A stretch of DNA of 62,945 nucleotides, filler included. It is 10 parts of 10 records of this genome, joined end to end, with 100 filler letters (N's around TTAATTAATTAA, not from the genome) between each part and the next. Parts side by side here need not be neighbours in the genome. Positions count along the whole stretch, not along the records: positions 42,632 to 45,652 come from SRR7504441_3662; 9 more parts are not named here. One strand, given 5' to 3'. The position numbers were made by a program, and so were the translations under genes. Positions 1 through 62,945 of the stretch are shown piece after piece (the first letter of the stretch is position 1; each line of letters begins with the position of its first letter). The notes below the pieces were generated by a model, which was given only the letters and a program-made list of their open reading frames with translations, searched no databases and was not told where the DNA came from.

Positions 1-156
1 TGGGAGCCGGCGGACAACATCCTGGACCGTGGGCTGATCACCGAGTACGAAGCACGGATACAAGCGCAGCAGGCAGGGCCGGAGCACGGCCACACGGTGG
101 TGCTGGACGACGACACGATGATCGTGGACGGGTTTATGATCACTGCACTTCACTAA
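1..156 (+). CDS. 3' end of a chromodomain-containing ORF (partial)
   Basis: Frame 1 reads WEPADNILDRGLITEYE...ALH*, matching the chromodomain C-terminal (T)WEPxxN-helix motif; truncated at the window start. Confidence 0.55.
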   Translation, partial: WEPADNILDRGLITEYEARIQAQQAGPEHGHTVVLDDDTMIVDGFMITALH

Positions 157-326
157 TTCAGGGACGGACTCTTTACTCCCGCGACGTGTTGAGTTAGTTC
201 ATTGCCATGTTTTAATATCTAATAAAATATCCGAAATTACAGTCATCGACAATCATCGATTGTCAATCAATGATTACTTTTGCGTTTTAATTTATCATTA
301 GTCGTATGCATGGATCCAATTGCTGG

Positions 327-1085
327 TTAGACCACATAGCCGGTCTCAGCGTCGCAGCAAGGCTGGCAACAGCCACCCTTTCGGCAGCCGGACGGCACCC
401 CGGACTCTGTCAAGTGATCGCTCCTCTCGAGCTCACGAATAGCCTCAGGCCCTATGGCGATCGCCAGCCACGAGGATCGGATCTCATGCCGTTGCGCGCC
501 ATACTGGTTGTAGACCATGTACCCGAATATATGGGTCTGGGTCTTGCAGAACATGCCCACCTCGGCAAGCCGCTCGTTCAGGTCGTTTTGCCACTCCTCA
601 ACCGCCGATTGGTAACGCCGCGGGTTGTAGCACAGACAGGCCAGACCTAAGCTGGTCAGGCAGGCCGTGATCATGCAGCACGCGCTGGAGGTCTGCGGCT
701 GCACCTCCTTGTCCAGCCGGTCCATGAACTCGCTCCAAAGCTCCTGCCGCAGCCCGAGCGCCGCCAGCCCCGCCGGCACTTTAATTAAATCTCGCTCGTT
801 CATCCCAGGCCCCACCCTGGTGCACCGGCGCGGGTAGAACGGCAAGATCACCCGGCTCTCTGTAGAGTCGGGCCGCAAGAACGCGGTCGGGTGGCAGCAC
901 CGCTTGCAGCAGGGGCAGCAGCACGAGGCCTCTTCCTTCTCGTGGTCTCGGTATAGCGAGTAACCCGGCGGCGCCTGCTTAGCCATATCCGGGTACTCGG
1001 CCGCCAGCTCGCTGTGCTCCTCGCTCTTCTCGCACTGTTCGGGCGCTTGCGCGGGGTCGTCCAGAAGCACTGCGTCTTTGTCCAT
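327..1085 (-). CDS. Cys-rich protein, possibly ERF4/Golgin-A7-like
   Basis: ORF from MDKDAV; WSEFMDRL...CCMITACLTSLGLACLCY...WQNDLNERL resembles the Erf4 domain; Cys clusters. Confidence 0.5.
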   Translation of the reverse strand: MDKDAVLLDDPAQAPEQCEKSEEHSELAAEYPDMAKQAPPGYSLYRDHEKEEASCCCPCCKRCCHPTAFLRPDSTESRVILPFYPRRCTRVGPGMNERDLIKVPAGLAALGLRQELWSEFMDRLDKEVQPQTSSACCMITACLTSLGLACLCYNPRRYQSAVEEWQNDLNERLAEVGMFCKTQTHIFGYMVYNQYGAQRHEIRSSWLAIAIGPEAIRELERSDHLTESGVPSGCRKGGCCQPCCDAETGYVV

Positions 1086-1200
1086 GTTTGCCGGCGGATG
1101 TTTCGGCAACCAGGCCGTTATCAACTGATGAAACCCCAGCTGGTAGTCTACGCTATTACTAATCCTGGACTGTGAAATCATCACCCAGCTTTCTGTGCCC

Positions 1201-2436
1201 ATGGCGCAGCAAGACGAACCGGACGGGCCGCCCCCACCCTACGAGCCGCCCCCACCGGCGCCCCAGCCGGCCGAGTGGCACACGGTGGGCTCCGCCGGCA
1301 TCTTCCGTCTCCAGGCCAGCCCGGGCGTCCCGCGGGAGCTGGAGCGGACCCCGGTGCTGGTCTCGGGCTCGATGGCCGAGGCCCTCGCCGGGTTGACCAG
1401 CCTGCCGGCCGAGTACAGAGAGGCGGATCTTGCCATGATCGAGGCCGGGCCTGAGCACCACAACAGCACGCTCGAGTACGGTCCGGACGCCAACGGCGAT
1501 TTGTGGATGGTCGAGCATCGGTCGGAGCAGAACTGGTGGCTGCAGTCCGACGTGAGCGCGGCGGTCTACACCCGACGGGCCAAGCAGCCGGCCGATGGGG
1601 CGTACCGGCTGATCGCCGTCCACCCGACCGACCCAACCCGGGCGGTGGCGGTGGCTGTCCTCCCGCACCCGGCTGTGTCTTCTGAGGCGGCCGGACGGGC
1701 GCTGGAGCAAGCCGAGGCATGGGCGAGCAGATTCCTGCCGGCCGAGCCGGGGGGCGCGTACCAGATGCTCGCGGGCAACCTATCCCCGGCGCTCGAGGAC
1801 CTGGCAGCCCACGTCTCACCGCCCGAGGCTGCCATAGAGCCCACCTCGCCCGCCCAGCGGATCCTCGCGGACCGGGCGGCGAGCAACAGCACCCAGCCGG
1901 CCGCCGAGGAACTCGAGTGCCCGGTGTGCATGGAGCCAATCGGCGAGGCCGATGCGGCGATGCGGTGCGCGGGGCAAGCCGGTGTGCGGCACTACTTCCA
2001 CGCCCATTGCCTGTCTCGCTGGGCCTCGACCTGCCGCGGCAACTGGAGCCAAGCGAGCTGCCCGGTGTGCCGCGGGCCGGTGGAGGTGCACGCCGAGCGG
2101 CTGGGCGACTTCCTCAGCGGGGCAGCCAGCAGTGAGCTCGATACGGAGAGTCGGGGGATGCTCTCCGGGCTGCTGGGAGGGCTAGGGAAGGGCTGGAGCG
2201 GAGTGTCGCGGGAGCAGGTGGCCGAGGGGATGGGGGTGCTGGCCGGGGCCGGATTCGGGTTCTGGCAAGGCTACAATGGCCGGGCGCCGAGCACGGGTTC
2301 GTTCATTATGGACGACTTGGTTTGGGATAATGCTCCACAATCGGTGAGGATGGCAGTGATTGGCGGCTGGATCGGGGGGCTGGGCACCAGGCTGGTCCGG
2401 TACCTGACCCGCAGCAAGGACGACGACGACGACTAG
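1201..2436 (+). CDS. RING-H2 zinc-finger protein with C-terminal hydrophobic segments (putative E3 ligase)
   Basis: CPVC...C...HYFHAHC...W...CPVCR motif; single exon. Confidence 0.8.
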   Translation: MAQQDEPDGPPPPYEPPPPAPQPAEWHTVGSAGIFRLQASPGVPRELERTPVLVSGSMAEALAGLTSLPAEYREADLAMIEAGPEHHNSTLEYGPDANGDLWMVEHRSEQNWWLQSDVSAAVYTRRAKQPADGAYRLIAVHPTDPTRAVAVAVLPHPAVSSEAAGRALEQAEAWASRFLPAEPGGAYQMLAGNLSPALEDLAAHVSPPEAAIEPTSPAQRILADRAASNSTQPAAEELECPVCMEPIGEADAAMRCAGQAGVRHYFHAHCLSRWASTCRGNWSQASCPVCRGPVEVHAERLGDFLSGAASSELDTESRGMLSGLLGGLGKGWSGVSREQVAEGMGVLAGAGFGFWQGYNGRAPSTGSFIMDDLVWDNAPQSVRMAVIGGWIGGLGTRLVRYLTRSKDDDDD

Positions 2437-2564
2437 GTGGCGAGAGATGCAGTCATAATGTTATTAATAATGCGCGGTACTCGCACCTGATTTTATTATA
2501 TTTAGAGATTCCAACAATACGTTTCACCCCGACGCAAGTGTAACGGACCACGCAAGTACAACGC

Positions 2565-3281
2565 TCACGCCCCGACCTTGGCGCCGACGATTGGCTTGAG
2601 CTCAGCATAAATTGCATCACTGCGACGGTTCTCAGCAAGCAATTCCGGACTCCCGCTGCCGTCAAAGCTCTCCAACACGCCCTGCGCCCCGTAGTGGTCG
2701 ATCAGCGGCGCCGTGTTGGCCGCGTACGCCTCGAGCCGCGTCCTGACTGCTTCGGGCTTGTCGTCGTCGCGCTGGATCAACGGCTCGCCAGTCTCGTCGT
2801 CCTTGCCCTCCGCTTTGGGCGGATTGAAGTCATAGGCGTACACGCGCCCGGAGGGCATGTGCACCCACCGGTTGCTGATCCGCTCCACAATCTCCTCGGT
2901 CGGCACCTCCAAGTTGAGCGCCAGGTCGATTTTGATCTCAGCGTCTAAAGCCTCCGCCTGGCCCACAGTCCTCGGGAAGCCATCGAGCAGCACGTGCGGT
3001 GCGTCGGTCCTCTGGAGCTGGTCGAGCACCAGCGCCACCATCAGCTGGTCCGGCACCAGGCCGCCCGAATCCATGTAGCTCTTGGCCTCCTTGCCCAGTG
3101 GGCTGCCTTCGGCTACGTTGGCGCGTAGCACGTCGCCGGTCGAGATGTGCCCGTATCCAAAGTCCTTCACCAGCTTCTTGCTGATCGTCCCCTTCCCCCC
3201 GCCCGGCGCCCCCATGATCAGCGTCGTGATGCTCCGCTGCTGCCCCGCCCAGCAGCGCCGAAGCGCTCCCGAGCCCAGCAT
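2565..3281 (-). CDS. AK3: Adenylate kinase, AK3-type (GTP:AMP phosphotransferase), with likely mitochondrial presequence
   Basis: GAPGGGKGT P-loop, HISTGDVLR, LDGFPRT, lid RWVHMPSGRVY...QRDDDKPE; start MLGSGALRR at 3281. Confidence 0.9.
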   Translation of the reverse strand: MLGSGALRRCWAGQQRSITTLIMGAPGGGKGTISKKLVKDFGYGHISTGDVLRANVAEGSPLGKEAKSYMDSGGLVPDQLMVALVLDQLQRTDAPHVLLDGFPRTVGQAEALDAEIKIDLALNLEVPTEEIVERISNRWVHMPSGRVYAYDFNPPKAEGKDDETGEPLIQRDDDKPEAVRTRLEAYAANTAPLIDHYGAQGVLESFDGSGSPELLAENRRSDAIYAELKPIVGAKVGA

Positions 3282-3324
3282 GGAAATCGTTACGCTCGTC
3301 CGGTCGGACTGGATCTCGGCATCG

Positions 3325-4996
3325 ATGAGACTACTCGCTGCCGTCCTGTTGCTGGCCGGCGCCTCCGGCCGCTCGGTCTGGCCCAAGCCGCTGCACCAGG
3401 CTGACACCGGTGCGGTGCACGTGATCGACCCAGCGGGGCTCCGGTTTAGCTGCAATGCGTCCAGCCCGATCCTGCTCGACGCCTTCAAGCGGTACAGCGG
3501 CATCATCACGGCCCACGCCGGCGCCAGCTTCCATGCCACCGACACAGCTGCCATCTCGACCTGCGCCGTATACGTGGGCAGCACTGACGATGAGCTCACC
3601 CTGGAGACCGACGCCTCGTACTCGCTGACCGTGTCAGGGAGCGGGATTCAGATCTCGGCCGAAACGGTGTACGGCGCAGTCTACGGGCTAGAGACGTTGT
3701 CCCAGCTGGTGGACCGGGGGGCGTTTATCAACGGCACCCAGATCTCGGACCGGCCGCGGTACCAATTCCGGGCGAGTATGATAGATACGAGCAGGCATTA
3801 CTATCCGTTGGAAGTGATCCTGCAGCACCTGGATGCGATGAGCTACAACAAAATGAACGTGCTGCACTGGCACATCGTCGACTCCATCTCGTTTCCGTTC
3901 CAGTCCACTACTTTCCCTGAAATGAGCACACAAGGCGCCTACAGCCCTGACCACGTGTATACCCACGACGACGTGAGCACTGTGATCGCGTATGCTAAGA
4001 ACCGCGGGATCAGAGTGATACCTGAGTTCGATACTCCCGGGCACGTCCAACAGGGCTACGCAGCGCTCGACCCCCCTATCCTCACGCAGTGCTACGACCC
4101 CAAGACCGGTAAGCCGATCGAGGGCGACGGTGCCACAGGTCCACTGGATGTCACGCTCCCAGCCACTTATACATTCCTGGCCAAGCTATACAGCGAGGTG
4201 GCCAAGCTGTTTCCGGACAAGTTCGTGCACGTCGGCGGGGACGAGGTGCCGTCGGCCTGCTGGGCTTCCAACCCTCACATACAGCAGTACATGAAGGCTC
4301 ACAACCTCAGGTGCGCCGTGCCTGCTCTGGGGTTCACGCAGAGGGCAGCTCGTTTGCCGACTTGGAGACGCTTTACGAGCAGCGGCTGTTGGATTTGCTC
4401 AAGGCGCAAGGCAGCTCGTACATTGTGTGGCAGGAGATTTTCGACAATGGCGCCAAGATCCAGCCCGACACTGTGATCGACGTGTGGAAGGTGCAGCTAC
4501 CGCCCGACTGCAGCCCGCACTGAGTGCATTGGGCCAGGGCGGCAACTGGCAGCAGGAAATGTCCAACGTCACCCGGGCCGGGTTCCACACGGTGCTCTCG
4601 GCGCCTTTCTACCTCAACTATATCTCATACGGTGAGGATTGGCCCAACTACTACAACGTCGAGCCTTCCAACTTCACCGGGGGCGAGGCCGCCGACAGAG
4701 CCGGGCTGGTGGGAGGGGTCGAGGCCTGCATGTGGTCCGAGTTCGTGGACGCGTCCAACTTCATCTCGCGGATCTGGCCACGGGCCGCAAGCGTGGCCGA
4801 GCGTGGCTGGTCCTCTAAGGATACGAGGGACGTCGGCGAGGCTAGGGTGCGACTGCACGAGTTCCGTTGCAAGCTGCTCGAGCGCGGCATCGGGGCGGAG
4901 CCGATCACCAACGGCGGCGACCCGGACGAGCTGCACGGGAAGAACTTTTGCCCTCGGGAGTGGGTGCCAAGGTACGCTCGGCCGTGGGATGGTTGA
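3325..4996 (+). CDS. Beta-N-acetylhexosaminidase (GH20), secreted/lysosomal; 3 exons
   Basis: Signal peptide MRLLAAVLLL; DTSRHY, NVLHWH, PEFDTPGH, HVGGDE, EACMWSE, RIWPRA; introns 4311-4348 and 4491-4537 join the frames. Confidence 0.93.
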
Positions 4997-5061
4997 ATAA
5001 TGGCTGAAACCGCTGATCTGATGATTCCGATGTGCACACGATTGAACGCATTTAGATAGTA

Positions 5062-5101
5062 AGTTGAGGTAGAACGGCGCCGAGAGCGCTGTGTGCAACC
5101 C
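5062..5101 (-). repeat. Inverted 40-bp copy of hexosaminidase coding segment 4580-4619
   Basis: Reverse complement matches at 36/40 positions (GLHTALSAPFYLN vs GFHTVLSAPFYLN). Confidence 0.85.
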
Positions 5102-5216
5102 ACTTACAATAAATATTTGACACCAAGTCTTGATCATAACGGTTCTAACAGTAGTTTCAACGGTGAAGGATAAGCGCACTAAAGCGCATTGAGTACTACA
5201 GTGTTAGCCTTCTACT

Positions 5217-5316
5217 NNNNNNNNNNNNNNNNNNNNNNNNNNNNNNNNNNNNNNNNNNNNTTAATTAATTAANNNNNNNNNNNNNNNNNNNNNNNNNNNN
5301 NNNNNNNNNNNNNNNN
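5217..5316. other. Artificial contig spacer (N-run, TTAATTAATTAA, N-run)
   Basis: Identical 100-bp linkers also at 23339-23438, 26489-26588, 31230-31329, 36658-36757, 42532-42631, 45653-45752, 53067-53166 and 58561-58660; six-frame stop linker. Confidence 0.98.
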
Positions 5317-5323
5317 CCATTGA

Positions 5324-6533
5324 TCAGCCTGGGCCCTGGCACCTCAGATGGGCGAACGAGGTTGGGTAGAACTCTAGAGGGTAATCGACCCCATCCACCT
5401 CCACACGATACTTCTTGTTCACCCGCTCCTTCACCAGCGCCCCCCGCCCGGCGTATTTGCCCTTCTTCATAACTATCCGCCGCCCCTCCCACTCATCCAC
5501 CTCTCCCGGCCCGTAGCTTCGCACTCGCCGCATCGCCGGAAAGCTCTTCGGAGAGTCGAGTGCCCTGTCCTCCAGTGTCTGCACGGCCGGTCGCCCTTGC
5601 GGCCCGTGCAGAGTGCTAATTAGCCCTGAGAGCGCGCCCATTTGTTGTTGGGCCGCGATCCTGTGCTCCAGGTCCCCCGCCATTGGCCCCACCATCGGCC
5701 AGCTGGCCGCAATCGTCGGCAGTTCCGCAGGCGGACAGGACTGGTTGAGCTGTCCACATGGCAGGAATGGCTGAGCGGGCACGGTTGGATAGGGGCCCCC
5801 AAACTGACCGGCAGTGTACGCCGGCGCGGGCACGGCCTCCTGCGAGGTCTCGGCCGGCCCTCGAGGGACGCAACTGAAGCAATAGTCCACTTTGCACGCT
5901 ATGCAGTGCCACCGCTCCTGCTGCCAGGGCTGGGCGCAACTGTCGCAGGTGAACCTGCCCTGCGGGTAGCTGGCATCGGCCCGGTCCGACGGGGTGCACG
6001 GGTGACCGGCCGGGCACTGGGGCACAGTGCAAGTGGTCGGCAGCCTGGGTCCTCCTCCAAAACCAGCCGGGGCCGCTCTCCCCAAGCCCGCCGGCTCGCC
6101 CTCGCCGACGGGCCAACCACGGGCATCCCCAGCCTTGGCCAGATCCCGGGTGCTCCTGACTGTGGACTGTTCCATGAACCGATTTAGCTGGTCGTCAGTG
6201 AACTCCAGCAGCTGGTCACAGGCCACTTGGCTCAGGCCGGACCCCACACGCAAAAGCTCCGGATCGCTCGATCGCGACCCAACCCGGGACAGCTCGGCTG
6301 CGCTGGCCGGCTGCTCCTCCGGGAGGCCCGGGGTGTCTGCCAGCGCCTCCTGGAACGCCTCCAGCGTGCCGTCGGAGCTGGCCCCCGGGCTGAGCCGGCC
6401 AGGGGAGGCAGCCAGGCTACCCGGAGCGGAGCAGTTCGTACAGTTCGTCGTCCGTCGGGCTCATGGTGCGACAGAGCATCGGGTTGAGCCCGCCCGAGCC
6501 CTGCCGGTGCAGCCCCGGCAGACCGTCGACCAT
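5324..6533 (-). CDS. ZZ-type zinc-finger protein with C-terminal KOW/SH3-like domain; 2 exons
   Basis: CPAGH...CDSC...HCIACKVDYCFSC; GRRIVMKKGKYAGRGALV; intron 6379-6421. Confidence 0.65.
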
Positions 6534-23338: not shown

Positions 23339-23438
23339 NNNNNNNNNNNNNNNNNNNNNNNNNNNNNNNNNNNNNNNNNNNNTTAATTAATTAANNNNNN
23401 NNNNNNNNNNNNNNNNNNNNNNNNNNNNNNNNNNNNNN

Positions 23439-26488: not shown

Positions 26489-26588
26489 NNNNNNNNNNNN
26501 NNNNNNNNNNNNNNNNNNNNNNNNNNNNNNNNTTAATTAATTAANNNNNNNNNNNNNNNNNNNNNNNNNNNNNNNNNNNNNNNNNNNN

Positions 26589-31069: not shown

Positions 31070-31329
31070 TCGCTGCTCCAGGGTGCGGTAGGCAGCAACC
31101 CGCCGATCCTCGGCCTGCCTGGCCCGGGCTGGCGGCCAGCCGGCGGGGAGGGCACTTCATCTCTTGCCGGGTTGCGGCGTGCGATTGCGCTTCGCACTGG
31201 AGCAGCTCGCGGGTCCGGGCGAGTTCGCGNNNNNNNNNNNNNNNNNNNNNNNNNNNNNNNNNNNNNNNNNNNNTTAATTAATTAANNNNNNNNNNNNNNN
31301 NNNNNNNNNNNNNNNNNNNNNNNNNNNNN

Positions 31330-36500: not shown

Positions 36501-37028
36501 TGTTAAGTAATGCATATAATAATACGGCTTTATCCGCTAAATTGCCAAATTCCGGCAGGTTTGCACATGCTATCGTAGACTCGCGGCTCTAGCTAAGGTA
36601 CCGTGTAGATTCATGGACTGCCAAGGTTCCCAATCGGGTCGGTGCGAATATCTACCTNNNNNNNNNNNNNNNNNNNNNNNNNNNNNNNNNNNNNNNNNNN
36701 NTTAATTAATTAANNNNNNNNNNNNNNNNNNNNNNNNNNNNNNNNNNNNNNNNNNNNGCGCGGCCCGTGGGCCCCTCAGCCGGCTGATCTGGCCTCGGAC
36801 GATGTCCACACCAGGCTGGACATCCGGGCGATCAGCACGTTGCTGGCGCGTGGCCACAAAGTTGAATTGCTCAACTTCGGAACTTGTGCACTTTTGCAGC
36901 ACTTTAATCAAATGTACTTATATTATAATCTATGAACGAATGTTTGCTACTGATACATCATTAATAATTACTGTATTTGAAAGTGGCACCCGAATCAGAT
37001 AATCGGATAATCGAAGTCTCATTCGGTC

Positions 37029-42531: not shown

Positions 42532-42631
42532 NNNNNNNNNNNNNNNNNNNNNNNNNNNNNNNNNNNNNNNNNNNNTTAATTAATTAANNNNNNNNNNNNN
42601 NNNNNNNNNNNNNNNNNNNNNNNNNNNNNNN

Positions 42632-45600
42632 CACCGACGCCTCCCTCAAATCAATGCAGGTTCGCAACTTGGAATTTGGGGTCGTGTTGTGCTGGAAGCT
42701 TCGAGCTTGCGCCGAATCCGTTCGCATTTCGAACGGCCAATTCACCTGCAAACCCATTTCCTCACAAACCCATTGAAGCAACCTCGCCGCCCCTACAGCC
42801 TCCCTCATGGCATATATTTCAGCCTCTGCTGGGCTAATGGCTGTGGCCGGCTGCTTTCGGCTGCACCAGTCCACTGGCATGGAGTTGACAAATAAGATGT
42901 ATCCCGTCTGGCTTCGCAAACCACTGCGCCTATCACCGGCATGGTCGGAGTCCACAAAATAGTCGAAGGTGTCCGTACCACTTACAGCTCCCCCAATTCT
43001 GAACTCCACCGTGGCACTCAGATACCCCAAGACCCGCAACATGGCTTTCCAAGCACCCTCGTCAGGCCTTGCCATCTTGGCACTGAGCCTCGATACTGCA
43101 TGCGCGATGTCAAACCTCACTGTCTTAGCAAAGTAATTCAAGGTGCCAACGACGTGCTTGTAGTACGCCGCATCCACATCCGAAAGCTTCGTGTTGTCTG
43201 AGTACAGCAGCGCAGCTGTCGGCATCGGCGTCGTGTACTGCCTGAGGATACCCCTGTCAAAACGCTGTAGAAACTCCGATACCGCGTCCTCCTGATCCAT
43301 GTAGATGCACTCCTCCCCATCAGCGAACTCCGTGGATATGGTGAATCCTAAGAAGTCCAAAGAATGGTCGGGTGCCAGATACTCCTCGGGCTTGCACTCG
43401 AACCTCTGTCCCAAAGCCCTGTGAAAAGCCTGAGTCTCCAATTGTCCGCCCCTCGTAAGAAAGTCATCGCAGTACAGGACCACCACCAGACCCGACTGCT
43501 GGTGCCGAAACATGCACGGTTCATTCAATCCCTGAGTGAATCCCATCTCCTCTGACGTCATCCAAGCTGCCACTGTCTCGTACCACCTTCTACTGGCCGA
43601 ACGTTGGCCATAGAGCGGTCCAAGCAGACGATACACCCGCTCGACTGCTTGTCTGTACGCCCTGTAAGACACGTACCCTGGAGCCTCGCCCGGGCCATAC
43701 TCTGTGCTCTGCAAGAAGGCAGTTGAGACGTCGCGCTTTGTGATCACGCAGCCCCGCATAGCTCGAGCAAGCAGCGCCCTCACAGTGGCCATGTGCACCA
43801 CTGGCGAGTCGTTCGATACGCCGCCATCCCAACCCGGTGGCTCCATGAACCCCTGCAAGATCAGGCGACCTTTGCGCCGACCATCCCGCTTCTGCTCAAG
43901 AATCATCCGCAAGCGGGGAACCAGCTCCTCCCTGCGCACCCTAGCTGCCTCCTCTGGGTCGAGCTCGCGTAGCCGGGCTCGGGTCACTGATTCTAGCTCC
44001 TCAGTGTAGCCCGGAACCCAGTCCTCAACCGACCCGGCGACCTTCTGCCTCCGCATCAATTCCTGCACGGCCTCTCGCACCTCCCCTGCATCGCTCGGGT
44101 CCACGCTCGCTAGGCTAGCAGTGGCAGCACCATCAGCCTCCGGCATCGCCGGCCCCTTCCTCAAGTACTTGCCAGCCTCCTCGCGCATGGCGTCAGCCAT
44201 TTCCCGCACACAGCAGGCCGCCCCCAGTCGTGACTCGAACTGCGCCATCAGTTCCGGAGCATGCACATTCTCCGCTGGCTCCCATGTGTCGCTGCTCCTA
44301 CCATAGCCCTTCCATCTGACAAGGAACATGGTCTTGCCCTTGACCCTTTTTCGATCCAAGATCCTCTGCACCTCGTACTCCGGCTCGGCCTCATCACTGT
44401 CGCTGTCGCATGTCGGTTCTGGGAGAGATACGCTCTCGCAGGCCTCGTCCTCCTGTGCTGTGCAATACCCATCACTGGCATCGCCGTCCTCGTCGCATGC
44501 AGCCCGGTGAAGCAACGGATCAAACGTCGCCTCCAAAAGCTCCGACTGATCCGGCCTACCCCCAGGCCCAACCATCGCCAGCGGCATGACACCACTGTGA
44601 ACCTTGACACTGTTATCAACCACAGTGGGCATCAAATTCCACGCCTGGGTCTTGGCATCCCACCGGATAGGCACCACCAGAGCCGACCCCACTGAGTCCT
44701 CCGCCCTGCCTACCCAGATGCCCATCTCCCCTGTGGGCTGGTACTCTCCCTGTCTGTTCGGCGCAGGGACATGCCAGGTAACCAGCTCTCCAAAGACGTG
44801 GTCCTCCTTCTGCCACTTGTATGCGCTCCCGGTCAGCTGCTCATGCGGCGCCTTTCGTGTCGCCCAATCGGTCACGTTAACACAAAAGTTCGCCCGCGCC
44901 AACAGATGCCCCCAGAGTTGGTCGTAATAAAACGCTCCCCCAGTGGCCCCCAGCAGCATTGAGCGCGCACGCTGCTTCAGCATGCCGATTCGCCTCTCCA
45001 CCACCGAGTTGGCCTGGGATCTGTACCCTCCAGTGTCGGTCTGCTTCCAGCCTTTCCGACGCGCCAGCGCACGCACCTCGCCCTCGAACGACTTGTCCAC
45101 ATCGGTGTGAAGCTGCACTATCGATCTGGTCTTGTCCGCACCCAGTCGCTCCAGCTCAGCGCTGAACTCGTCCAAGGCCGCCGCCACCGACTTGGAATCA
45201 CGCCGCTCCAGGAGCCGCACAAAGCCGTAAGCAGCCTCATCTCCTGGGGCTACCTCGTCGTCATCGCTGTACCCCGCCACACAACACACCAACGCCACCG
45301 TATGCCCATCCAAGGTCGGCGAGTGGCGCCCAGTGAAGTCTGCCGAAGCATGGTACCCTCCAGGTACTCTCGTCCCGCCACTCTGCTTCTTCTTGCGCCT
45401 GGCTGCCTTCTTGGCTCGCTTCTGTCCTCGGACACAGTGGTCGCAATCTGGCCGGTAGGGATGGCCACTCCGAGCGTGATCCTGGTACCAGGATGGAAGC
45501 CGCTGTGCCGTCACTGCACTGCGATCCGACACCTCAGTCACAGCATGCGGCCAACAGCACACGACATCCGTCCACTCAACCGGTCCCATCTCTGTGGGTA

Positions 45601-45652
45601 GCCGGAATAGCCTGCCATCTCTGTCCAGCTCGATGTCCTGGCCCGGATAATC
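42632..45652 (-). mobile_element. Ty1/copia LTR retrotransposon pol (integrase-chromodomain-RT-RNase H); LTRs and gag not in contig
   Basis: HARSGHPYRPDCDHC; DDE (ADFTG, HTDVDKSF, NSVVERRI); chromodomain 44234-44380; RT KRDGRRKGRLILQGF, DVSTAFL, LYGQR, YCDDFL; RNase H VDSDHAGD...SQTGY...WCSRKQ...EAE; uninterrupted ORF. Confidence 0.93.
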
Positions 45653-46010
45653 NNNNNNNNNNNNNNNNNNNNNNNNNNNNNNNNNNNNNNNNNNNNTTAA
45701 TTAATTAANNNNNNNNNNNNNNNNNNNNNNNNNNNNNNNNNNNNNNNNNNNNTGGGTCCGCGCCAAAGGGGAGCACCGAGCCAGACGAGGAGCAGACCGG
45801 CCGCCGGCCGAGCCACCGCCAGCAGACGGCACTGCCCCGCCTGCAGACCAGGGACATCGAGGCTGACGTCACGGTCCCGGACCAGGCCCCAGCTGCAGTT
45901 TACTATGGCGTCCTGTACCGGACAAAATAGATCTAGGCGACTTAAGGAAAAAGCGTGGATTTAGAGAAAATGCCACGTGTTAAGCATGGACTTACGATGA
46001 AAATCGTGTC

Positions 46011-53066: not shown

Positions 53067-53166
53067 NNNNNNNNNNNNNNNNNNNNNNNNNNNNNNNNNN
53101 NNNNNNNNNNTTAATTAATTAANNNNNNNNNNNNNNNNNNNNNNNNNNNNNNNNNNNNNNNNNNNN

Positions 53167-58131: not shown

Positions 58132-58942
58132 TGAGCCCCGGCTTGTGCCAATTCATTGCACTTTGAGAGGCTTGTCAATAGCTCGTCAAAGATGTCGTGA
58201 GATTCATTTTAACGCACGAAGCTACATGTACATGAACTTTTTACAGTGAACTCGTTATGAATTCATACTGTACCTGGCAGATTGGCCCACTCAGGTCGGT
58301 ATCAGGTCGGCATAGACAATTTTGAATACAATAGTGAAAGCAAAGCATCCCGCATACAATCGATATCTACCGGTATATACAATCATATTTCATTCTGTTT
58401 TAGATATGCAGTGGTTGGGGCAGACAGGTGACGTCTAGTTGTGAGCTCGTTGCTTTGTCTGTCTCGTCCGGACTAGTAGTTCGTATTCGGCCTTCCGTTC
58501 GGCTTTTGAAAGCCGAGTGTGCTGCAATAGGCATGCGGACGCTGCTAGATTAAAGCGAGTNNNNNNNNNNNNNNNNNNNNNNNNNNNNNNNNNNNNNNNN
58601 NNNNTTAATTAATTAANNNNNNNNNNNNNNNNNNNNNNNNNNNNNNNNNNNNNNNNNNNNATCCGTCCTAGCTTCATCTCAGGTCACACGAAAGCTATAG
58701 ACTAGTTAGACTCAAGACTCGTACTCGTAGGCAGCCAGTACATGTAGGCGAGTACGTGGAGGCCCGCCAGAGCCCGCTAGAGCCCGCCAGCACGAGCTGT
58801 ACTGCATTGCATCTGGGGACTCCAAGTCAAGCACGTCTCGTCTCATCAGGGGTCACCACAACGGAACAAGCTGAGGAATCCGCGGCCGCTTCTTCATCAC
58901 AATCCGCGCCAGGGGGGGCGGGTGGACTTGACGCGATTAGCT

Positions 58943-60518: not shown

Positions 60519-62945
60519 TCAAAAATTCCTATAGTCCGGCAGATATCGCAACGCAACAAACGCCACTAGTCTCAAACCCACGGTGATTCCGGCCAGCGCC
60601 AGGAGGCTGCTCCACTTGTTGCCGACGCTAAAGCCATACAGGTCCAGAACCTCATCCCCAGTTATCTCTTGCTCTCTGCCGGCTATCGTCTCGTGGAAGG
60701 TTACACCATCAAACTGCACGATCCCCGAGAATGCAGCAGCGTACTTGAGGGGCGAGATGAAATTGAGCTGCTCGAGCACAGCTGGAAGATTGCCACCGGC
60801 CCGAAACCAGCCACACATAACGTTCAAGAGCGATAGCCAAATCGATACGATGCTGACTGCAAAGCCGGCGTGCTTGATGGCCGAACAGAAGATGAGGCCA
60901 GCGGTCTCCCCATTGGTTATCACGAGAAATATCACCAAAGCGCTCTCCAGAAAAGCAGCGATGGTGTTTGTGAGCCCAATCACGTAGCAGAAGAGTGCAC
61001 TGCAGAGGAAGGATCCGAAGATCGAGCAGGGGATTTCTATGCACATGTAGGCCAACAGGAACGAGGTGCTGTTATAATGCCCGTCGTGCCGATCTCGGAG
61101 ATACACATTGCGCTCAGCCGGGAAGTTTGCTATGCAGGTGAGCATGCCCACAAAGATGAACGGCTGCCACTCATAGAGAAGCCCCACTCGGTTCTGAATG
61201 TTGTCCACCTTGTGAGCAAAGAACAGCGTCAAGATGACTGCAAGTGCCAGCGGCTGCCCAATCCGCGCAGCCACCAGATGCGGCTGTCTCCACGAATTCA
61301 GCACAGACCGCCAGATTAGCAATCCAATCACAGTGCAAACAGGGGTAGCCTGCGGGCTGTCGGCTTCCTGGCTTTGACTCGGGGCTACCGGCTCACTAGT
61401 GGGTGCAGCATCCACACTGCCACTGGGTGGGAGCGAACTCAGGTAGGCTCCGTCAGCTAGAATGTCTAGGAGGTAGTCGGCAGGGTTGGTGCACTCCGGA
61501 AACGGAAAGCCCTGGCTAGTGAACTGCTGAATCGCTCCGTCTAGATTACCGTGATACACGCACTGACCCTGCGCAATCAGAGCAACTGAGCCAGTGACGA
61601 GGGCCATGATATCTGAGCGCGGTTGGTGGATTGAGGCGATGATTGTGGTGTGGCGGAGCTGTGCCAAGCTACACAAGGTCTCGACCAAGTATCGCGCAGT
61701 GGCCGCATCGAGACCGGAGGTCGGCTCGTCAAGCAGCAGCAGCGACGGTGATTTGACCATCTGGCATGCCACAGAGATCCGCCTCCTCTCGCCACCGCTG
61801 CAGCTGGCGACCAGCGTGTGGGCACAATCGGGAAGGCAGAGCTCAAATAAGAGTTTGTCGACCTGCTCGACGCTGCTCGACGAGATTCGAGCAGCAAAGA
61901 TCAGAGTCTCCCGCGCAGTCAGCCCGATCATCAGGTCGTCGTCCTGCATTACGAATCCGCATTTCGAGCGATTCAACGGCTGGTGGTTGAACAAGACCGA
62001 TCCAGTCACCACGACAGGCGGTCCGATGTGGCCGGCGACTGCGCGCAGCGTGGAGGTCTTGCCGCTACCACTCGGGCCCATCACCACACTGAAGCAGCCG
62101 GCCGGGAACTCGGCATCCACGTGGTCCAAGATCAGCTTGTGCGAGCCACCACTCTGATCCAGCAAGCTCTCCTTGCTTGGATCCGAGCGCTTGGGCTGTC
62201 CGACAACCACGCTGAGCTGGACCAGCTTGAGCCCCTGAGTAGCAGCCCGGAGCTCCGGAACGTTCAGTTGAGAGGGCCCTTCGCCGTCAAAGAAACCGTG
62301 CTGTTCTGGGCGCCGTTCAAGCCGACCGCTGCTCGCGCCAGTCCCTGCGAGGGCCGGGATGGCGTGCACCCTGTGAGAGAGCATCAGCACGGTGGTGATC
62401 AGTTGGTACGCGACATAATGGAGCAGCAGCACTAGTATCAGCTGGCTAGTGGTGGTGGACCCACTCAGCCCAAGCTGCTCGAGCACGGCATCGCCTGACA
62501 CTCCGGGATCGTACGAGTTGCCTCGGTATTCGTTGATCGCGAAGAGCTGGAACTCGACCCACTGAAAACTGATACGTTTAATCCAAGCCAGGTAGACCGG
62601 CACAGTGTCGGCCTTCATTAGGAAACCGCCCGAGAGCACCATGAAGGTATAGAGTGAATTGGCGATCAGCGAGGCGAGGTCGAAATTGCGAGTGATGCTC
62701 ACCGCACAGGCGGCTATAGAACTGCCTACCAGCTGGCCCCAGAAGCATCCCATGAGGAAGATCAGCATGTGGCTGCCTCCATCATCGAGCCGCAATCCGG
62801 TCAGGAAGTAGCAGGAGCACCCGTACAAGAGGCTCTGGGCTAGCTCCAGTGGGAGATAAATCACTCGCTGCACCAGCACGCCGCACCACGGCCGGTACGC
62901 TCGGTCGTCCGCCTCCGCATCAAAGATCGGCATGTCGACTTCGCA
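60519..62945 (-). CDS. Full-size ABCG transporter (TMD1 end, NBD2, TMD2); 5' truncated
   Basis: MGPSGSGKTS, CSGGERRRISVA, LLLLDEPTSGLD, SIHQPR, NPADYLLD, ABC2-type TMDs. Confidence 0.92.
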   Translation of the reverse strand, partial: CEVDMPIFDAEADDRAYRPWCGVLVQRVIYLPLELAQSLLYGCSCYFLTGLRLDDGGSHMLIFLMGCFWGQLVGSSIAACAVSITRNFDLASLIANSLYTFMVLSGGFLMKADTVPVYLAWIKRISFQWVEFQLFAINEYRGNSYDPGVSGDAVLEQLGLSGSTTTSQLILVLLLHYVAYQLITTVLMLSHRVHAIPALAGTGASSGRLERRPEQHGFFDGEGPSQLNVPELRAATQGLKLVQLSVVVGQPKRSDPSKESLLDQSGGSHKLILDHVDAEFPAGCFSVVMGPSGSGKTSTLRAVAGHIGPPVVVTGSVLFNHQPLNRSKCGFVMQDDDLMIGLTARETLIFAARISSSSVEQVDKLLFELCLPDCAHTLVASCSGGERRRISVACQMVKSPSLLLLDEPTSGLDAATARYLVETLCSLAQLRHTTIIASIHQPRSDIMALVTGSVALIAQGQCVYHGNLDGAIQQFTSQGFPFPECTNPADYLLDILADGAYLSSLPPSGSVDAAPTSEPVAPSQSQEADSPQATPVCTVIGLLIWRSVLNSWRQPHLVAARIGQPLALAVILTLFFAHKVDNIQNRVGLLYEWQPFIFVGMLTCIANFPAERNVYLRDRHDGHYNSTSFLLAYMCIEIPCSIFGSFLCSALFCYVIGLTNTIAAFLESALVIFLVITNGETAGLIFCSAIKHAGFAVSIVSIWLSLLNVMCGWFRAGGNLPAVLEQLNFISPLKYAAAFSGIVQFDGVTFHETIAGREQEITGDEVLDLYGFSVGNKWSSLLALAGITVGLRLVAFVALRYLPDYRNF

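Follow-up and report, generated by a model that had tools for sequence, protein, structure and literature searches.

The stretch of DNA analysed here (the window; 62,945 nucleotides) contains part of a Ty1/copia retrotransposon in which a chromodomain lies between the integrase and the reverse transcriptase (RT), and the question that this locus raises is whether the domain is a genuine part of the element and, if so, what it would do there. Positions 42632-45652 were found to be one complete contig of 3021 bp, flanked on each side by a linker of 44 N's, TTAATTAATTAA and another 44 N's. As such linkers chain separate contigs together, the neighbours of the 3021-bp contig in the window are not its genomic neighbours, and the argument of the first-pass annotation from a genome with almost no intergenic space finds no support in a chain of unlinked contigs. 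The contigs of the window have a GC content of 56-66%, and no second copy of the element was found within the window.

Translation of the minus strand of the contig in frame 1 gave 1007 codons with no stop, versus a mean of 38 stops and a minimum of 18 in 2000 composition-preserving shuffles of the contig; the other five frames contain 15-37 stops each. The polyprotein runs from integrase through chromodomain and copia-type RT to an RNase H region, and the first-pass annotation was right to place chromodomain, integrase and RT in the same unbroken open reading frame. Its description of that frame as intact holds for the absence of stops across 3 kb, but what the contig carries is a fragment truncated at both ends. 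Since the frame is cut by both contig ends, gag, the protease, the tail of RNase H and the long terminal repeats (LTRs) are not on the contig. The features of the contig are as follows:

42632..45652, minus strand: whole contig, an LTR-retrotransposon pol fragment open at both ends (N linkers, stop-free translation)
45491..45652, minus strand: residues 1-54, upstream of the integrase, with the family-conserved DGRLFRLP (alignment to P0006, family consensus)
44468..45490, minus strand: integrase (invariant catalytic residues, AF2 model, Foldseek)
45434-45478, minus strand: integrase zinc-binding motif H59-x4-H64-x5-C70-x2-C73 (conserved in relatives)
45338-45340, minus strand: integrase catalytic D105 (invariant column)
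45101-45103, minus strand: integrase catalytic D184 (invariant column)
44996-44998, minus strand: integrase catalytic E219 (invariant column)
44378..44467, minus strand: acidic low-complexity linker from integrase to chromodomain, residues 396-425 (sequence)
44228..44377, minus strand: HP1-type chromodomain, residues 426-475 (Pfam Chromo, PDB phmmer, AF2 and Foldseek)
44375-44377, minus strand: chromodomain cage residue Y426 (alignment to HP1alpha/HP1beta)
44312-44314, minus strand: chromodomain cage residue W447 (alignment to HP1alpha/HP1beta)
44303-44305, minus strand: chromodomain cage residue Y450 (alignment to HP1alpha/HP1beta)
43973..44227, minus strand: variable helical linker, then a conserved N-terminal extension of the RT, residues 476-560 (family consensus, model)
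43223..43894, minus strand: copia-type RT, residues 587-810 (Pfam RVT_2, invariant columns)
43463-43474, minus strand: RT YCDD box (D729 and D730 invariant among relatives)
42632..43162, minus strand: RNase H region, residues 831-1007 (position, homology, motifs)
42932-42952, minus strand: DSDHAGD motif in the RNase H region (sequence)

Residues 1-54 align from residue 624 onward of P0006, a full-length relative of 1708 aa, and probably represent the linker between protease and integrase, with the protease active site lying off the contig. In the integrase that follows, the D,D35E residues D105, D184 and E219 were invariant in two alignments, of 18 and 28 relatives, and the zinc-binding residues H59, H64, C70 and C73 were conserved among the aligned relatives, with an unusually short spacing from H to C. 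An SH3-like C-terminal domain comes after the catalytic residues, and a Foldseek search with the AF2 model of the integrase (pLDDT 82, pTM 0.84) retrieved the integrases of PFV, RSV, MVV and HIV (E about 1e-11, probability 1.00). Pfam returned a weak match to SH3_retrovirus at residues 285-324 (E 0.1) and, on the 1007-residue translation, no match to rve at E<=1. The acidic linker that leads on to the chromodomain differs in both length and sequence between relatives, and its acidic run lines up with the N-terminal tail of HP1alpha, which is likewise acidic.

The chromodomain itself was recognised by Pfam Chromo (PF00385) at residues 426-475 with an E-value of 1.6e-15 (57.2 bits; cut-off 25.1), a span close to the 44234-44380 first proposed for it. 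Its best matches in a phmmer search of the PDB were HP1alpha (CBX5; E 2e-18) and HP1beta (E 2.6e-15), with the Polycomb-type CBX2/4/6/7/8 ranking behind them at 1e-7 to 1e-9. Y426, W447 and Y450 align with the Y, W and F of CBX5 and CBX1, which, together with the Pfam match above cut-off, bears out the description of a canonical chromodomain with its cage aromatics. Structure prediction with AF2 gave a pLDDT of 83 overall and of 92-97 across the domain, with strands at 24-33, 36-43 and 52-55 (model numbering) and then a helix, as in the chromodomain fold of a three-stranded sheet plus a helix; the model also has a helix after the chromodomain. In Foldseek the model matched the CBX1-H3K9me3 complex (6d07) with an rmsd of 0.6 Å over 52 columns (TM 0.93, 46% identity), and it superposes at 0.6-0.7 Å on CBX1, CBX5 and HP1 bound to H3K9me2/3 peptides. 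Among 24 aligned chromodomains of relatives, W457 is kept in all 24, W447 in 23, and position 450 is aromatic in 23. Cage position 1 (the Y426 column) is aromatic in just 14 of the 24, with an aromatic residue one position upstream in three more, and not every member of the clade therefore need read the same mark. The HP1-type and CDY/MPP8-type matches fit either H3K9me or H3K27me as the predicted mark.

The RT was matched by Pfam RVT_2 at residues 587-810 (E 6.7e-16, 59.1 bits; cut-off 31.6), and RVT_1 gave no match to the 1007-residue translation at E<=1. As 59.1 bits is low compared with the 170-520 bits of classical copia proteins, the element belongs to a divergent branch. The RT is thus copia-type with the integrase ahead of it, as the segment map also shows and as first annotated; a grouping of the RT with gypsy, under which that annotation would have been wrong, was not found. 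A gypsy element of the Gmr1-like kind, which also carries its integrase before the RT, was considered as a candidate and ruled out, the RT being RVT_2 and not RVT_1. The RNase H region ends at the contig edge, about 65-70 residues short of the end of the relatives' polyprotein. It is homologous to the segment that follows RVT_2 in classical copia polyproteins (phmmer E 1e-13 to 1e-25) and contains motifs that we take to be those of copia RNase H; its putative assignment rests on these motifs, on this homology and on its position. No RNase H family model matched in Pfam or NCBIfam, and an NCBIfam search of the contig protein gave no match at all. Of the domain models named for this element in the first-pass annotation, Chromo and RVT_2 were hence recovered above their Pfam cut-offs, and rve and an RNase H model were not.

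We found the same combination of domains in many other proteins. By hand count of the matches listed, precomputed RVT_2 and Chromo annotations occurred together in 20/28 in one search and in 39/62 in another. When 95 proteins were placed in an RT-RNase H tree, the query fell in a clade of 56 with an SH-aLRT support of 100, and a 57-row tree under a mixture model recovered the same topology with a support of 99 for the query clade; these supports are SH-aLRT values from quick searches. Identity to the query across RT and RNase H goes down to 36% among the relatives listed. In the 56-protein clade, 45 members carry a chromodomain upstream of the RT, the other 11 are fragments without upstream sequence, and none lacks the domain; its sister clade of 14 proteins comprises 11 without a chromodomain and three fragments. 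The 45 chromodomain-bearing members trace back to several collections (ENA, JGI, Logan and EukProt). Two colinear loci, L001 and L002, share the domain order of the query with 57% and 50% identity, respectively, over residues 1-1007. The chromodomain is fixed between integrase and RT across a large and deep clade, which so far consists of environmental sequence only. Its presence in all 45 checkable members of so deep a clade argues that it is important for the survival of the element.

Relatives that are full length are compact, at about 5.2-5.5 kb, with direct terminal repeats of 81-123 bp placed about 5.1-5.4 kb apart. Directly after the 5' repeat they carry TGGTAGC or TGGTATC, a tRNA-type site resembling a primer-binding site (PBS), and they encode a single gag-pol frame, some 1700 aa long, in which the protease motif is of the D[TG]GA type and Gag has a CCCH finger; no CCHC finger was found in the Gag of these relatives. 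In the 90%-identity cluster of one relative, P0023, which is 37% identical to the query, seven of 23 members are 1760-aa copies on separate contigs. No convincing target-site duplications were found in the relatives, a result to be read with the caveat that metagenome assembly of multi-copy elements may fuse the flanks of different copies. The stop-free 3-kb frame and the near-identical full-length relatives suggest that the lineage is active now or was so recently.

We consider it probable, with the targeting step argued by analogy, that the contig is a fragment of a Ty1/copia element from a deep clade in which a fixed HP1-like chromodomain guides integration to silent chromatin. In this model the host-derived domain would read a methylated lysine of histone H3, most likely H3K9me2/3 and possibly H3K27me3, and would hold the pre-integration complex at chromatin that is silent and rich in repeats. 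In a gene-dense host this would place new copies at a distance from genes. In Ty3/gypsy chromoviruses the chromodomain directs integration to heterochromatin (Gao et al. 2008, as summarised in passages of PMC6673714 and PMC5348765), and the present element would have come to that function independently, from a copia backbone.

A less likely reading is that the chromodomain, although real and fixed, has no part in the choice of target sites. It might instead recruit the RT or the particle to chromatin, act as an HP1 mimic that blunts or exploits host silencing, or serve in nuclear retention, and after processing it may sit on the RT and not on the integrase. The domain is internal, with variable linkers on both sides, versus the C-terminal chromodomain of chromoviruses, and because of these linkers it might stay on the RT or be released. 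In addition, cage residue 1 is lost at the aligned column in 10 of the 24 relatives with the domain itself retained, which hints that its role may not depend on the reading of methyl-lysine in every case. On the other hand, the chromodomain directly follows the SH3-like domain of the integrase, and it is directly after this domain that the integrases of Ty1 and Ty5, both of the Ty1/copia type, carry their targeting determinants. The cage in the present copy is intact and of the HP1 type, and a chromodomain stands at the same place in P0106 and P0132, two environmental copia proteins, and, in the accounts of them that we drew on, in the diatom elements CoDi-A/CoDi-I.

We regard it as improbable that the contig lies outside any mobile element, whether as a dead relic or as a host gene domesticated from a retrotransposon. 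Such a reading would fit an internal fragment whose contig lacks LTR, PBS and gag and of which the window contains only this one copy. A relic, however, would be expected to gather stops, and there are none in 1007 codons; in a domesticated gene one would not expect integrase, RT and RNase H to have stayed together, and here all catalytic residues of integrase and RT are kept. The relatives, moreover, are full elements, bounded by terminal repeats, equipped with a PBS-like site and present in multiple copies that are nearly identical.

Among public sequencing runs, 10 DNA runs and no RNA run matched the element; in four of them, from four studies of seawater or marine metagenomes, the matching contigs measured 85-325 bases and 9/13 pieces had at least 99% identity. 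It is very improbable that an assembler joined a host HP1-like chromodomain to a copia integrase and RT, for although the contig stems from a short-read metagenome-type assembly, and the contigs from the four public runs all fail to span 44046-44450 and leave the junction without independent read support, the frame is unbroken through both junctions and the order integrase-chromodomain-RT recurs in 45/45 clade members with upstream sequence, drawn from several collections, and in the colinear loci L001 and L002.

Returning to the reading of the chromodomain as an integration guide, the closest known system is found in diatoms. Llorens 2009 (PMC2774666) describes CoDi-A as a diatom Ty1/copia lineage with a chromodomain at the integrase C-terminus, captured independently of chromoviruses, and Ustyantsev 2017 (PMC5348765) restates the same chromodomain as that of CoDi-I. 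The novelty that the first-pass annotation saw in a chromodomain on a copia element was therefore overstated, going by these accounts, which have been in print since 2009; our literature search, Symbiodinium included, found no further chromodomain-bearing copia beyond CoDi-A/CoDi-I. As described, the CoDi-A/CoDi-I elements of Phaeodactylum tricornutum and Thalassiosira pseudonana resemble the present element in their copia pol, with the chromodomain at the C-terminal end of the integrase and before the RT, in an RT distant from classical Ty1 and copia and in their marine origin. No CCHC finger is reported for CoDi groups 1-5 in the relevant passages of Maumus 2009 (PMC2806351), and the relatives of the query lack one too. 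They differ in their terminal repeats, which are reported as 153-844 bp as opposed to 81-123 bp in relatives of the query, and the CCCH finger in the Gag of these relatives was not found in the CoDi descriptions that we consulted.

An ABCG protein of housekeeping type encoded in the window has a best named match of 34% (chytrids and other fungi), its only close match, at 56%, being a transcriptome. From this one gene, and on the assumption that the retrotransposon contig belongs to the same organism, the window contigs do not resemble the genome of any sequenced diatom. Atlas matches of the element itself fell in broad eukaryote clusters only.

P0106 and P0132, which are environmental classical copia proteins, also carry a chromodomain between the SH3-like domain of the integrase and RVT_2. 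They differ from the query in that Pol_BBD, rve and SH3_retrovirus are present and RVT_2 scores 170-207 bits; Retrotran_gag_2 and gag_pre-integrs were found in P0106 as well, and zf-CCHC in P0132. In our trees P0106 nests within the classical copia clade, far from the clade of the query, and the chromodomain of P0106/P0132 is a separate acquisition. The sole taxon label that the cluster look-ups returned belongs to a fragment of 353 aa, a member of the 90% cluster of P0106, which is filed under a planctomycete MAG and which we took as contamination.

We propose only tentatively, as a reading with somewhat less than an even chance of being right, that the query clade is not CoDi-I but a copia lineage of its own, very deep and so far undescribed, from aquatic protists other than diatoms, and that a chromodomain has been captured at the integrase C-terminus at least three times within copia. 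If so, the lineage would be told apart by an HP1-derived chromodomain that all its members keep, by a Gag that combines a SAM-like N-terminus with a CCCH and not a CCHC finger, by an integrase whose zinc motif is shortened, and by terminal repeats that measure only about 80-125 bp. The captures, in the query clade, in CoDi-I and in P0106/P0132, would then make the chromodomain a recurrent solution and not a diatom oddity. Since the principle has been in print since 2008-2009, the gain is one of breadth and not a new concept. In gene-dense protist genomes, insertion into silent chromatin would be a plausible route to persistence, and with the host known, the family could serve as a marker-plus-reader system for probing H3K9me/H3K27me heterochromatin in little-studied marine protists.

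Relative to its presumed host source the domain is almost unchanged: it shares with HP1/CBX1/CBX3/CBX5 the fold, the cage and the acidic N-terminal tail, at 46% identity to human CBX1, and it differs in having no chromoshadow domain and no hinge and in lying inside a transposon polyprotein. In Saccharomyces, the Ty1/copia element Ty5 carries a determinant at its integrase C-terminus that sends integration to heterochromatin. This determinant is a short peptide that binds Sir4; the copia-type backbone and the place of the determinant are shared with the present element, but the Ty5 peptide is not a histone-mark reader. The chromoviruses (Ty3/gypsy, Metaviridae; MAGGY, Tf1-type elements and relatives of CRM) share an integrase-fused chromodomain, presumed to tether integration to marked chromatin, and some of their chromodomains ('group I') carry all three cage aromatics. 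They differ in having RVT_1, the order PR-RT-RH-IN and a C-terminal chromodomain, whereas RVT_2, the order IN-RT-RH and an internal chromodomain are found here. As the RT belongs to another superfamily, the acquisition of the chromodomain was separate from that of the Ty3/gypsy chromoviruses and the resemblance is convergent. That the element works like a chromovirus is something we infer from this analogy, and the locus adds evidence that capture of a host histone-mark reader at the C-terminal end of the integrase is a repeated event in retrotransposons of both LTR superfamilies.

Reading the minus strand of the 3021-bp contig that corresponds exactly to coordinates 42632-45652, we found 1007 codons in a single frame without a stop (hereafter the query). 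Shuffles of the same composition contained a mean of 38 stops and a minimum of 18 over 2000 trials, the remaining five frames of the contig contain 15–37, and GC3 of the open frame is 0.69. The intact ORF described in the first-pass annotation is therefore uninterrupted as claimed, but the frame is open at both ends. The following features were mapped to it:

Residues 587-810, minus strand: RVT_2 (Pfam, 59.1 bits; cut-off 31.6)
Residues 426-475 (44228-44377), minus strand: Chromo (Pfam, 57.2 bits; cut-off 25.1)
45434-45478, minus strand: integrase zinc motif (H59, H64, C70, C73)

In the same Pfam search of the 1007-codon frame neither RVT_1 nor rve was matched; the match to RVT_2 with RVT_1 absent speaks against an RT that groups with gypsy elements. 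When the chromodomain was compared with PDB sequences, the top matches were HP1alpha (CBX5, E 2e-18) and HP1beta (CBX1, 2.6e-15), followed by CDY, MPP8 and Rhino, with the Polycomb-type CBX proteins reaching just 1e-7 to 1e-9. Like HP1alpha, the query has an acidic run N-terminal of the domain. A predicted model built on 24 relatives (pLDDT 92–97 across the domain) superimposes on CBX1-H3K9me3 with 0.6 Å over 52 columns (TM 0.93, 46% identity). The structure initially proposed, a copia-type RT and an integrase with a chromodomain between them, is thus borne out by the Pfam and PDB matches and the model. The position first assigned to the chromodomain agrees with the Pfam mapping, and the aromatic cage said to be intact is so, Y426, W447 and Y450 aligning with Y, W and F of HP1.

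In two alignments, one of 18 full-length relatives and one of 28 integrase segments, D105, D184 and E219 are invariant, with D,D35E spacing, and the zinc motif is kept in all 28 of the latter. This motif is compressed (H-x4-H-x5-C-x2-C); in retroelement integrases the second His is usually separated from the first Cys by about 20–30 residues. A predicted model of residues 40-400 (pLDDT 82, pTM 0.84) was matched by Foldseek to foamy-virus, RSV, MVV, MMTV and HIV integrases (E ~1e-11, probability 1.00), a match that takes in the catalytic core as well as the SH3-like C-terminal domain. The YCDD box of the RT is invariant in the alignment of relatives. Over its last 177 residues the query is homologous to the post-RVT_2 region of classical copia polyproteins and contains what we take to be typical copia RNase H motifs, while no Pfam or NCBIfam family model matched this region.

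A word-indexed search returned 28 relatives at 37–55% identity, 20 with both RVT_2 and Chromo; searching with just the RT-RNase H part returned 62, of which 39 have Chromo; and an exhaustive HMMER search returned 448 representatives at E<=1e-30. Among the relatives listed, identity to the RT-RNase H part of the query goes down to 36%. The only transcriptome-derived relative is the EukProt protein P0021, whose last ~35 residues are probably an artefact, presumably translated sequencing adapter from their appearance. Ten environmental proteins of 338–735 aa among the best 150 matches of the whole polyprotein (P0078, P0088, P0092, P0094, P0102, P0104, P0119, P0121, P0123 and P0124) are made up of chromodomains in tandem, four or five per protein, which are individually ~35–41% identical to that of the element.

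When 95 RT-RNase H segments were placed in a tree with SH-aLRT support, the query fell within a clade of 56 (support 100). Using a profile from 27 family members to score the chromodomain upstream of the RT, we found it in 45 rows of this clade and absent from none, 11 fragments starting too late. The sister clade of 14 comprises 11 rows without the domain and three fragments. The same picture came from 57 rows analysed under a site-mixture model, with the query clade at 99 and two label changes in all. On this distribution, the domain was gained once at the base of the deep clade and has been retained since. Four sister-clade members (P0064, P0066, P0077 and P0085) have a more ordinary copia signature: Pfam matched SH3_retrovirus in each of them, rve weakly in two and a CCHC-type finger in a single protein. 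Contigs from four public runs are short and thin, and none spans 44046-44450; the relatives keep the order integrase, chromodomain, RT, and with 45 clade rows carrying the domain and none lacking it, a chimeric assembly as the source of the join can, on these comparisons, be excluded for practical purposes. A catalytically complete integrase and RT lie in one copia-type polyprotein, with an intact-cage chromodomain between them, and this arrangement is kept across a deep clade. We are very confident that the query is a copia-type element with an HP1-type chromodomain.

The outer parts of the element lie beyond the window's contig and are described here from relatives. We collected 78 related loci from metagenome contigs, whose GC spread (37–60%) suggests many hosts. 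Full-length relatives encode proteins of about 1600–1800 aa with the order SAM-like N-terminus, CCCH finger, D-[TG]-G-A protease motif, integrase, chromodomain, RT and RNase H. The Gag N-terminus gives a weak SAM_1 match (best E 3.4e-4; P0004, P0006, P0009, P0012, P0015 and P0039), the Gag features of these proteins lying at residues about 375-430 and 39-81. A single CCCH zinc finger (C-x8-C-x5-C-x3-H), with further matches to tristetraprolin-type fingers among PDB entries, replaces the usual CCHC knuckle. Self-comparison revealed direct repeats of 81–123 bp, about 5.1–5.4 kb apart:

L017, 104-186 / 5225-5307: terminal repeats
L022, 82-182 / 5513-5613: terminal repeats
L050, 128-249 / 5769-5890: terminal repeats
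L002, 1-75 / 5185-5259: terminal repeats

Directly after the 5' repeat, L017, L022 and L050 have TGGTAGC or TGGTAGT, and L002 has TGGTATC after its repeated leader; this is a putative primer-binding site, complementary to the 3' end of a tRNA. Tandem or partial second copies are found on some contigs (L002, L059). L002 has a single 1708-aa ORF at 111-5237, and since the ORF stop of one copy lies only 57 bases from the ATG of the partial copy that follows, the terminal repeat overlaps coding sequence. No convincing target-site duplications were found in the relatives' loci. At the locus L049, an 81-bp stretch recurs (1-105 and 5969-6049) and ends in CCCTAA repeats, with two further units on one side; this tract may be telomere-like and either adjoin an element copy or lie within it. 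The 90%-identity cluster of P0023, a protein 37% identical to the query, holds seven copies of 1760 aa on separate contigs among its 23 members, which suggests that this branch has been active recently.

The window consists of ten contigs of 3.0–18.0 kb (GC 56–66%) split by nine linkers, each of the form 44 N, TTAATTAATTAA, 44 N:

5217-5316, 23339-23438, 26489-26588, 31230-31329, 36658-36757, 42532-42631, 45653-45752, 53067-53166, 58561-58660: linkers

As these spacers are artificial, adjacency across them is meaningless for any finding in the window, and since the retrotransposon contig has no true neighbours there, the element offers no local gene-density or synteny argument. The other contigs carry eukaryotic genes for tuberin, an Alg9-like mannosyltransferase, a BT1 transporter, an ABCG transporter, and GH20 and GH123 hydrolases. 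The ABCG transporter shares 56% identity with one EukProt transcript, and its next matches, another sequence and then chytrids and other fungi, reach at most 34%. Host genes at 60522-62945 (minus strand) and on other contigs are without close named relatives. A poorly sampled marine protist appears to be the source of this DNA.

In Ty1 and Ty5, copia integrases carry targeting determinants at their C-terminal end. Because the chromodomain lies at this same end, and chromoviruses provide a precedent for targeting (Gao et al. 2008, as summarised in the excerpts of PMC6673714 and PMC5348765), methyl-histone-guided integration is the mechanism we somewhat favour. After processing, the chromodomain would stay on the integrase, may bind methylated H3K9 (or K27), and would tether integration to silent chromatin. 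Weak points of this proposal are that the linkers flanking the chromodomain vary on both sides among relatives, and that the first cage residue is aromatic at the aligned column in only 14 of 24.

Chromodomain-bearing copia elements of diatoms are in print, which justifies the caution first voiced over earlier stramenopile reports (PMC2774666 and PMC5348765, in their excerpted text). In the excerpt of Llorens et al. 2009, diatom CoDi-A copia integrases have a putative C-terminal chromodomain, its capture is suggested to be independent of chromoviruses, and no other copia element had one (PMC2774666). The corresponding section of Ustyantsev et al. 2017 names as known INT-CHD elements the chromoviruses, oomycete Chronos and the Ty1/copia CoDi-I of Phaeodactylum (PMC5348765). 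In Maumus et al. 2009, CoDiI comprises groups 1-2-3-4-7, and CoDi LTRs of 153–844 bp, elements of 5182–8062 bp and CoDi-like RTs in ocean metagenomes are reported; the excerpted text does not mention a chromodomain (PMC2806351). Several features would favour membership of the CoDi-I lineage: like CoDi-I, the query clade is marine, far from classical copia, without a CCHC finger and similar in element size. Other features differ or would count against it: the relatives of the query have much shorter terminal repeats and a CCCH finger in Gag, and the window's other contigs resemble no named genome (ABCG 56% to EukProt, 34% to chytrids/fungi). The query is a chromodomain-bearing Ty1/copia element, a kind already in print, compared here with CoDi-I by description, and is part of a large environmental clade in which every checkable member keeps the chromodomain (45 of 45). 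Tentatively, at slightly less than even chances, we put forward that this lineage stands apart from CoDi-I and has a Gag and LTR architecture of its own. Chromodomains also lie between integrase and RT in two polyproteins of classical copia type, both with the standard Pfam domain set of copia:

P0106, residues 1003-1054: chromodomain
P0132, residues 849-894: chromodomain

As P0106 is nested within the classical copia clade of the RT-RNase H tree, its chromodomain is a separate acquisition, and capture at the integrase–RT position has thus occurred more than once within copia.
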